Assembly (NCBI RefSeq): GCF_003334315.1
Contig: NZ_QOWR01000004.1
Direction: 5' to 3' (one strand)
Length of the DNA: 64,000 nt
Source of the DNA: Escherichia coli
GTDB taxonomy: Bacteria; Pseudomonadota; Gammaproteobacteria; Enterobacterales; Enterobacteriaceae
Positions within the stretch are counted from its first letter, which is position 1; each line of letters opens with the position of its first letter. Made by a program: the position numbers and the translations under genes. Of this stretch, positions 9,677-31,846 are shown one piece after another. The notes beneath the pieces were generated by a model, which worked only from the letters and a program-made list of their open reading frames with translations, did no database searches and was not told where the DNA came from.

Positions 9677-9870
9677 GCACTCTCCTTGAGTTTTATGCAG
9701 GTGTTAATTAGCGGGCAATTGTACCCTGGTTAAGCCTCGGGTGGCAGCATCAGGTCTTGTATGGAAAAGCATATCTTTGTAAAGCGGAGGTAATTGCTGG
9801 CCTTCAGGCATGGGCAAATCGCGGCAAGTGGCGACCGAGTTAATATTTGCGTAGCGAAAATATTTAAAAA

Positions 9871-9884
9871 TTGATTTAAATCAC
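9871..9884 (+). promoter_or_regulatory. FNR-type binding site upstream of ompW
   Basis: ttgatttaaatcac matches TTGAT-N4-ATCAA with one mismatch, about 150 bp upstream of the ompW ATG; ompW is a known anaerobically induced FNR target. Confidence 0.5.
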
Positions 9885-10032
9885 ATTAACCAGGATTCTC
9901 AATGCAACTTCTAAATTAATCCAGATCAATAAAGGGTGAATTATCATATGTAATGTGATCTATGTAGGATCATTTGTTACTCCAATGTAGGTATATTCGT
10001 CACGTTTTTATAACCATAACGACGGAGCGGAT

Positions 10033-10671
10033 ATGAAAAAGTTAACAGTGGCGGCTTTGGCAGTAACAACTCTTCTCTCTGGCAGTGCCTTTGCGCATGA
10101 AGCAGGCGAATTTTTTATGCGTGCAGGTTCTGCAACCGTACGTCCAACAGAAGGTGCTGGTGGTACGTTAGGAAGTCTGGGTGGATTCAGCGTGACCAAT
10201 AACACGCAACTGGGCCTTACGTTTACTTATATGGCGACCGACAACATTGGTGTGGAATTACTGGCAGCGACGCCGTTCCGCCATAAAATCGGCACCCGGG
10301 CGACCGGCGATATTGCAACCGTTCATCATCTGCCACCAACACTGATGGCGCAGTGGTATTTTGGTGATGCCAGCAGCAAATTCCGTCCTTACGTTGGGGC
10401 AGGTATTAACTACACCACCTTCTTTGATAATGGATTTAACGATCATGGCAAAGAGGCAGGGCTTTCCGATCTCAGTCTGAAAGATTCCTGGGGAGCTGCC
10501 GGGCAGGTGGGGGTTGATTATCTGATTAACCGTGACTGGTTGGTTAACATGTCAGTGTGGTACATGGATATCGATACCACCGCCAATTATAAGCTGGGCG
10601 GTGCACAGCAACACGATAGCGTACGCCTCGATCCGTGGGTGTTTATGTTCTCAGCAGGATATCGTTTTTAA
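10033..10671 (+). CDS. ompW: Outer membrane protein W (8-stranded beta-barrel)
   Basis: 212-aa ORF with signal peptide MKKLTVAALAVTTLLSGSAFA and C-terminal aromatic residue (…AGYRF); matches recalled OmpW. Confidence 0.95.
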   Translation: MKKLTVAALAVTTLLSGSAFAHEAGEFFMRAGSATVRPTEGAGGTLGSLGGFSVTNNTQLGLTFTYMATDNIGVELLAATPFRHKIGTRATGDIATVHHLPPTLMAQWYFGDASSKFRPYVGAGINYTTFFDNGFNDHGKEAGLSDLSLKDSWGAAGQVGVDYLINRDWLVNMSVWYMDIDTTANYKLGGAQQHDSVRLDPWVFMFSAGYRF

Positions 10672-31474: not shown

Positions 31475-31846
31475 TTATCATCATTCTTATTACCCATTTT
31501 TAATGAATTACAGGGCTTTTAATACACCGCAGCAATAACAGGTTGAGTTATCTCAACACAAAGTAATAACCGTTAAGGGTGTAGCCTATGATCAACACAA
31601 ATATGAAATATTGGTCCTGGATGGGCGCGTTTTCTCTGTCGATGCTCTTCTGGGCCGAACTCCTCTGGATCATTACTCACTGATCCCTGACCCCGTTGCG
31701 GCGGGGTTTTCATTTGCTTTGCCACAAGGTTTCTCCTCTTTTATCAATTTGGGTTGTTATCAAATCGTTACGCGATGTTTGTGTTATCTTTAATATTCAC
31801 CCTGAAGAGAATCAGGGCTTCGCAACCCTGTCATTAAGGAGGAGCT

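Follow-up and report, generated by a model that had tools for sequence, protein, structure and literature searches.

The yciC-ompW intergenic region and its FNR boxes

We studied a regulatory site in a 64,000-nucleotide stretch of Escherichia coli DNA, which we will henceforth refer to as the window. The site lies in a 356 bp intergenic region (9677-10032) flanked by the genes tonB, yciA, yciB and yciC to the left and ompW, yciE, yciF and trpA to the right. Among 5426 complete E. coli genomes, 5418 contain this region with at least 80% coverage. The gene to its right, ompW (10033-10671, + strand), encodes an outer membrane protein of 212 amino acids, as seen in the list of open reading frames and in the RefSeq annotation of an identical locus. 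Upstream of it, positions 9871-9884 of the + strand read TTGATTTAAATCAC, i.e., TTGAT-TTAA-ATCAC, and agree with the FNR consensus TTGAT-N4-ATCAA at 9 of 10 consensus positions, the sole mismatch being the last base. The centre of this box is 155.5 bp away from the ompW start codon (ATG at 10033), and 201 bp separate the box from the ATG of yciC. The surrounding DNA (9850-9935) has a GC content of 28%, compared to 51% for the window as a whole. The first-pass annotation, which had described an FNR-like half-site pair with one mismatch in an AT-rich region upstream of ompW, was accurate on both counts.

This 14-mer is the published FNR site of E. coli ompW at -126.5, which is already known and well characterised. 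Specifically, the two ompW FNR sites reported by Xiao 2016 (PMC4886647) are letter-identical to TTGATTTAAATCAC (centred at -126.5; henceforth the distal box) and to TTAATCCAGATCAA (centred at -81.5, window 9916-9929; henceforth the proximal box). Myers 2013 (PMC3688515) likewise lists TTGATTTAAATCAC at -126.5 under the FNR ChIP-seq peak yciC/ompW (Table 1 and Table S6), with PatSer scores of 15.03 for the distal and 14.3 for the proximal site, so that the comparison with published FNR ChIP data, which had been proposed as a check, returned the identical 14-mer. The FNR identity of the site also stands up in vitro, where an EMSA complex formed with the FNR-D154A variant is lost upon its mutation (see below). 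According to a 2026 footprinting paper, the ompW promoter is among the best-annotated promoters of E. coli K-12, and two of its footprint peaks coincide with experimentally confirmed FNR sites of RegulonDB.

The remaining published elements could be placed on the window in the same manner. The ompW transcript begins with a G that precedes the ATG by 29 bp, as mapped by 5' RLM-RACE and in agreement with an earlier genome-wide map (Xiao 2016, PMC4886647); when this start is put at window position 10004 (+ strand), the two FNR boxes centre exactly at -126.5 and -81.5. Further downstream on the + strand lie a CRP site (TGTGATCTATGTAGGA, 9954-9969, centre -42.5) and a NarL site responsible for nitrate repression (TACTCCAATGTAGGTA, 9978-9993, centre -18.5), both exact matches to the sites tested in Xiao 2016, followed by a probable -10 hexamer, TATATT (9992-9997, + strand, -12 to -7), which we assigned from its position and its invariance in 12 out of 12 sequences. 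An ArcA box from the supplementary tables of Park 2013 (TGGTTATAAAAACGTGACGAA, - strand, -8 to +13) has a reverse complement that matches the window at 9996-10016. The exact mapping of the published FNR, CRP, NarL and ArcA elements and of the start supports equating the 14-mer with the published site. The ompW promoter escaped a simple sigma-70 consensus scan, as is expected for activator-dependent promoters. A paper on divergently transcribed ncRNAs names ompW only as a target of MicA, and the yciC-ompW region is absent from its text.

We assessed how far the resemblance to FNR sites exceeds chance expectation. A plain consensus count over the whole window, allowing at most one mismatch, returned 2 matches against 2.83 expected and was therefore not above chance; both matches fall into the yciC-ompW intergenic region, with 45 bp between them. 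Given that such a count lacks power, we replaced it with clustering tests and with a symmetric FNR weight matrix, built from 61 ChIP-bound sites (Myers 2013, Table S6) with the two ompW sites left out. With this leave-out matrix the distal box scored 18.0 bits, the best score of the 64 kb window, while 0.037 positions scoring as high or higher are expected per dinucleotide-shuffled window; the weight-matrix scan that the first-pass annotation had put forward as a check thus ranks the site first. The distal score falls inside the range of the training sites (11.8-21.1 bits), and the proximal box had the second-best score of the window (14.8 bits). None of 300 shuffled windows contained two such matches at most 100 bp apart. 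When only the AT-rich intergenic region was dinucleotide-shuffled, 0.5% of the shuffles gave one match at least as good as the weaker site and none gave two. The distal FNR box is not an artefact of base composition.

The third-best matrix score of the window (14.6 bits) belongs to TTGAGTTATCTCAA at 31543-31556. This sequence, near acnA, appears in Table S6 of Myers 2013 (PMC3688515) as a predicted site that has no ChIP-seq peak and lies under H-NS enrichment.

Roles of the two FNR boxes

The contribution of each box to ompW expression is known from published experiments. In EMSAs with FNR-D154A, an oxygen-insensitive variant of FNR, the native promoter gave two complexes, promoters with either box mutated gave one, and the promoter with both boxes mutated gave none (Xiao 2016, PMC4886647). 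In the same study, mutation of the -81.5 box lowered anaerobic ompW-lacZ expression about 3-fold, i.e., to the level of an fnr deletion. By contrast, expression rose about 2-fold when the -126.5 box was mutated and about 3-fold when it was deleted (a 14-bp deletion that also alters the helical phase of the upstream DNA), and in a -81.5 mutant background deleting the -126.5 box changed nothing further. After an oxygen downshift, ompW expression peaked at about 10 min and fell after about 30 min; with the -126.5 box deleted, it climbed higher and remained high through the 4 h followed. H-NS acts as an aerobic repressor of ompW (Xiao 2016, PMC4886647).

Studies disagree on the net sign of FNR control. 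Myers 2013 (PMC3688515) placed ompW among the genes on which FNR acts as a direct, partial repressor, here via the -126.5 site, whereas in Xiao 2016 the gene is activated; ompW rises overall under anaerobiosis despite its assignment to the repressed class. Considering the two boxes separately, we conclude that the 14-mer is very probably the distal of two FNR operators, of which the one at -81.5 activates ompW and the one at -126.5 damps it 2-3 fold. The down-modulating role of the distal box is supported by its sequence, its top matrix score and published ChIP-seq, EMSA and mutagenesis, and the activating role of the proximal box by its matrix score, published mutagenesis and conservation. 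The arrangement resembles that of a tandem-FNR damping promoter, with the second, activating box TTAATCCAGATCAA located 45 bp downstream of the first. The first-pass annotation did not include this proximal box (9916-9929), on which anaerobic activation depends.

A different option is that the distal box is a hybrid FNR/CRP site at which cAMP-CRP could compete with FNR, tying the damping to the carbon source. TCACA, a perfect CRP half-site, is formed by its right half and the base that follows, and ATTGA-N6-TCACA fits 8 out of 10 CRP-core positions, compared to 7 out of 10, by our own count, for the validated site at -42.5; moreover, the CRP EMSA fragment used in Xiao 2016 (-120 to -3) excluded the distal box. 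Against this, CRP-core matches of this quality are no more frequent in the window than chance predicts (20 found, 27 expected), the left half carries the T typical of FNR sites and not the G typical of CRP sites, and the ompW literature covered here reports no CRP binding at the distal box. We thus regard a hybrid site as unlikely.

Conservation and origin of the distal box

To place the two boxes in an evolutionary context, we used the OmpW peptide PYVGAGINYTTFF as a degenerate DNA pattern to search species-representative genomes, which yielded 76 loci (three of them, L006, L017 and L057, were without usable ompW upstream sequence, and a fourth, L054, was too short). The pattern retrieved no Salmonella, Enterobacter or Yersinia. 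With one representative taken per genus, 32 out of 42 genera had an FNR-type box that scored 13 bits or more and lay no further than 250 bp from the ompW ATG, against 0.43 expected. Nine of the 42 genera carried tandem FNR-type boxes 30-60 bp apart upstream of ompW, whereas 0.17 would be expected from sequences shuffled around the retained main site. These frequencies show FNR-family control of ompW to be old and widespread.

The position of the boxes varied between lineages. Genera distant from E. coli have tandem pairs as well: in Photobacterium (L005, L035, L075) strong FNR-type boxes lie at distances of 156 and 112 bp from the ATG, and further pairs 30-60 bp apart occur at L011, L039, L062, L072, L051 and L033. 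In Erwiniaceae (Rosenbergiella, Winslowiella and Erwinia; L003, L007, L042, L046, L049, L053, L067) the strongest FNR-type box is found 136-150 bp before the ATG; this main box scores 18-19 bits, and only a weak box lies nearer to the gene.

Closer to E. coli, the two boxes have had different fates. The proximal -81.5 box is kept in E. albertii, Citrobacter, Kluyvera, Klebsiella and Buttiauxella (14.7 bits in five genera), and the alignment shows the ompW 5' untranslated region to be conserved in the same taxa; the TGTGATC half of the CRP site and the -10 hexamer are invariant in 12 out of 12 aligned enterobacterial sequences. At the distal position, by contrast, only the left half, AATTGAT, is widely retained across the aligned Enterobacteriaceae. 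Scores at this position decrease from 17.8 bits in E. coli and 12.1 in Citrobacter to at most 7.9 in Kluyvera, 1.4 in E. albertii (where the counterpart of the box is TTGACCTGAGTCGG) and -4.0 in Klebsiella, and the complete -126.5 palindrome was not found outside E. coli among the relatives and genera sampled. The two boxes are thus not conserved as a unit in related species: the proximal box is kept and the distal one is not. For Salmonella, Yersinia, Klebsiella and Enterobacter, too, Xiao 2016 (PMC4886647) mentioned conservation of the -81.5 and CRP sites alone. As the full distal site is absent from close relatives, it is inessential for FNR control of ompW in general.

The same alignment contains an inverted repeat, GTGATC-N7-GATCA (window 9955-9973), in 12 out of 12 enterobacterial promoters, in which TGTGATC is invariant, as is the right-arm TCA. 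The published CRP site, TGTGA-N6-TAGGA, accounts for the left arm of this repeat and not for its conserved right arm, the spacing of which misfits the usual CRP palindrome.

Within E. coli, the distal 14-mer was unchanged in 7 divergent versions of the promoter, down to an overall identity of 96%. Variable columns numbered 0 out of 14 in the box and 50 out of 371 across the alignment; the chance of finding none in the box is about 0.13, which is not significant. The invariance of the distal box in E. coli is consistent with constraint.

The distal box lies next to the remains of a lost gene. What remains of this YkgJ-family cysteine-cluster gene, its last 29 codons, lies at 9704-9793 (- strand), as indicated by the RefSeq pseudogene annotation and by translation. 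Comparing the E. coli intergenic region to Citrobacter with blastn revealed a deletion scar at 9795-9841, where 47 bp replace about 405 bp of ancestral sequence. Homology with relatives restarts at 9842, i.e., 29 bp to the left of the distal box. In E. albertii, Citrobacter and Klebsiella an intact YkgJ-family gene (about 134-137 amino acids) is located between yciC and ompW and is divergent from ompW; the stretch lost in E. coli comprises most of the YkgJ-family coding sequence and about 91 bp of its upstream region. Of the lineages sampled, it is thus the one that lost the divergent YkgJ-family gene in which the full distal box is found.

A second difference between E. coli and its relatives concerns ArcA. 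Just downstream of the -81.5 box (window 9929-9945; about 4422-4438 in L015), Citrobacter, Kluyvera and Klebsiella retain CAATAAATGTTAAAT, which by our own count is similar to the consensus for ArcA, GTTAATTAAATGTTA; in E. coli the corresponding sequence, CAATAAAGGGTGAAT, is degenerate. The functional Salmonella ArcA site has been reported at -70 to -55, i.e., where CAATAAATGTTAAAT lies, and the reported E. coli ArcA box sits at -8 to +13 rather than beside the -81.5 box. One possible scenario, which we put forward tentatively and consider rather unlikely, is that the full distal palindrome arose recently in the E. coli lineage: part of an ancient bidirectional control region would have been refined and recruited as an FNR-dependent damper of ompW, perhaps in place of the ArcA box beside -81.5. 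The order of these events and the functional replacement of the ArcA box are conjecture.

The history of the region could also be read to mean that the distal box mainly serves the divergent side, as a leftover operator of the YkgJ-family gene or as an operator of yciC, and that its effect on ompW is incidental. The intact divergent gene in E. albertii, Citrobacter and Klebsiella would fit this, as would the retention of AATTGAT, at a distance of about 115-128 bp from the YkgJ-family ATG, in the majority of these genera, and the E. coli deletion stopping 29 bp short of the box. However, the full palindrome is present only where the YkgJ-family gene is dead, and genera with a living copy have a weak box or none, the opposite of what is expected of a dedicated operator, which makes a role on the divergent side unlikely. 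In addition, the ATG of yciC is 201 bp away, yciC is not among the FNR-regulated operons in the part of Myers 2013 covered here, and an effect of the box on ompW has been measured (Xiao 2016). In Citrobacter, a simple sigma-70 consensus scan upstream of the YkgJ-like gene returned nothing resembling a promoter, which carries no weight here as the scan also missed the activator-dependent ompW promoter. Taken together, we consider a primarily divergent function to be improbable.

Likewise improbable is that the distal box is the FNR activator behind the anaerobic induction of ompW. This was the role implied by the first-pass annotation, which saw the site as agreeing with that induction, and a near-consensus FNR box in the promoter of an anaerobically induced gene does invite it. 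Yet mutating or deleting the box raises expression 2-3 fold, activation is lost only when the -81.5 box is mutated (Xiao 2016), and the distal box is missing in relatives that retain the -81.5 site. Its position is also wrong for this role: in nearly all FNR-activated promoters the site is centred near -41.5 (Class II) or -61.5 (Class I), whereas the RACE-mapped start at 10004 puts the centre of the distal box at -126.5, so that the start proved incompatible with activation from this site, which is the very observation that the first-pass annotation had named as one that would refute it. That the box is a chance palindrome in AT-rich, H-NS-bound DNA, with mutant phenotypes arising from H-NS binding or DNA geometry, is hardly credible, since the low GC content, the aerobic repression by H-NS and the unremarkable plain consensus count that would suit it are outweighed by the intergenic shuffles, by the FNR ChIP-seq peak over the region (Myers 2013) and by the loss of one complex with purified FNR-D154A when the distal box alone is mutated (Xiao 2016).

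The ompW promoter thereby offers a caution for annotation: a near-consensus box upstream of an induced gene was taken as the cause of induction, and experiments show the opposite sign. The true activating site is the weaker-looking neighbour, and the role of each box is decided by its position relative to the transcription start, not by the quality of its match. What is new here is evolutionary only. The ompW FNR site itself was known already, and the lineage-specific origin of the distal box beside a deletion scar is a minor new observation, i.e., a damping site that among the relatives sampled is specific to E. coli, in contrast to an activating site and an FNR-type control of ompW that are old and widespread. 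The observation may be of interest for the rewiring of regulatory regions; it leaves the picture of ompW regulation unchanged.

Damping at ompW and at related promoters

The published data and the sequence features suggest how a distal FNR operator could damp ompW. Earlier work has shown that dimeric [4Fe-4S]-FNR occupies both ompW boxes as oxygen falls. FNR at -81.5 turns the promoter on, partly by counteracting H-NS, and FNR at -126.5 does not activate and instead cuts the activated output 2-3 fold, such that ompW reaches its maximum shortly after the anaerobic shift and then declines. The damping itself might operate by anti-activation at a distance, with the upstream FNR dimer upsetting the contacts between RNA polymerase and FNR at -81.5 (together with CRP at -42.5). 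By analogy with what has been reported for upstream FNR at yfiD, we consider this mechanism the most likely one; ArcA may assist the damping.

The order in which the boxes are filled can be viewed in two ways. Xiao 2016 (PMC4886647) proposed that -81.5 is occupied first and -126.5 only at higher levels of FNR. The reporter epistasis is equally explained by independent occupancy of the distal box, which would have nothing to damp in the absence of activation. The distal box is the better match by both measures (18.0 vs. 14.8 bits with our matrix, 15.03 vs. 14.3 with PatSer), which fits poorly with it being filled second. Yet the published ChIP-seq summits (1,311,935 and 1,311,943) correspond to window positions of about 9924 and 9932, on or beside the proximal box, at a ChIP-seq resolution too coarse to split sites 45 bp apart. 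An identical 14-mer within marB has no FNR ChIP peak (Myers 2013 Table S6, PMC3688515), meaning that sequence alone is no guarantee of occupancy in vivo.

We compared the locus with several characterised systems. With respect to the published ompW site at -126.5 (Myers 2013; Xiao 2016; RegulonDB), the window has the same 14 bp, the same distances to the ATG and transcription start and the same neighbouring sites, with no sequence difference.

Like ompW, yfiD (grcA) has tandem FNR boxes, at which downstream FNR activates and upstream FNR suppresses. The yfiD boxes centre near -40.5 and -93.5; at ompW, by contrast, the boxes are located at -81.5 and -126.5, and it is CRP, not FNR, that takes the -42.5 position. 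The spacing between the boxes is 53 bp at yfiD (Myers 2013, Table S6) and 45 bp at ompW. As cited in Lee and Busby 2012, Marshall 2001 found that upstream FNR at yfiD suppresses downstream FNR with no involvement of the alpha C-terminal domain, and the title of Marshall 2001 presents tandem FNR sites as an architecture for microaerobic activation.

A second comparison, drawn by both Myers 2013 (PMC3688515) and Xiao 2016 (PMC4886647), is with cydAB, which, like ompW, is induced under anaerobic or microaerobic conditions while being partially repressed by FNR, and is also co-regulated by ArcA and H-NS. The two differ in that ArcA activates cydAB and FNR is there purely a repressor, bound near the promoter (-53.5; Myers 2013, Table 1), whereas at ompW FNR is both activator and damper. 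Finally, guaB (with CRP at -117.5) and synthetic tandem-CRP promoters resemble ompW in that promoter activity is reduced when a dimer of the CRP/FNR family binds far upstream, beyond -100 (Husnain 2009; Lee and Busby 2012). In these cases the regulator is CRP, as opposed to FNR at ompW, and at the synthetic promoters repression is exerted through the alpha C-terminal domain of RNA polymerase (Lee and Busby 2012).
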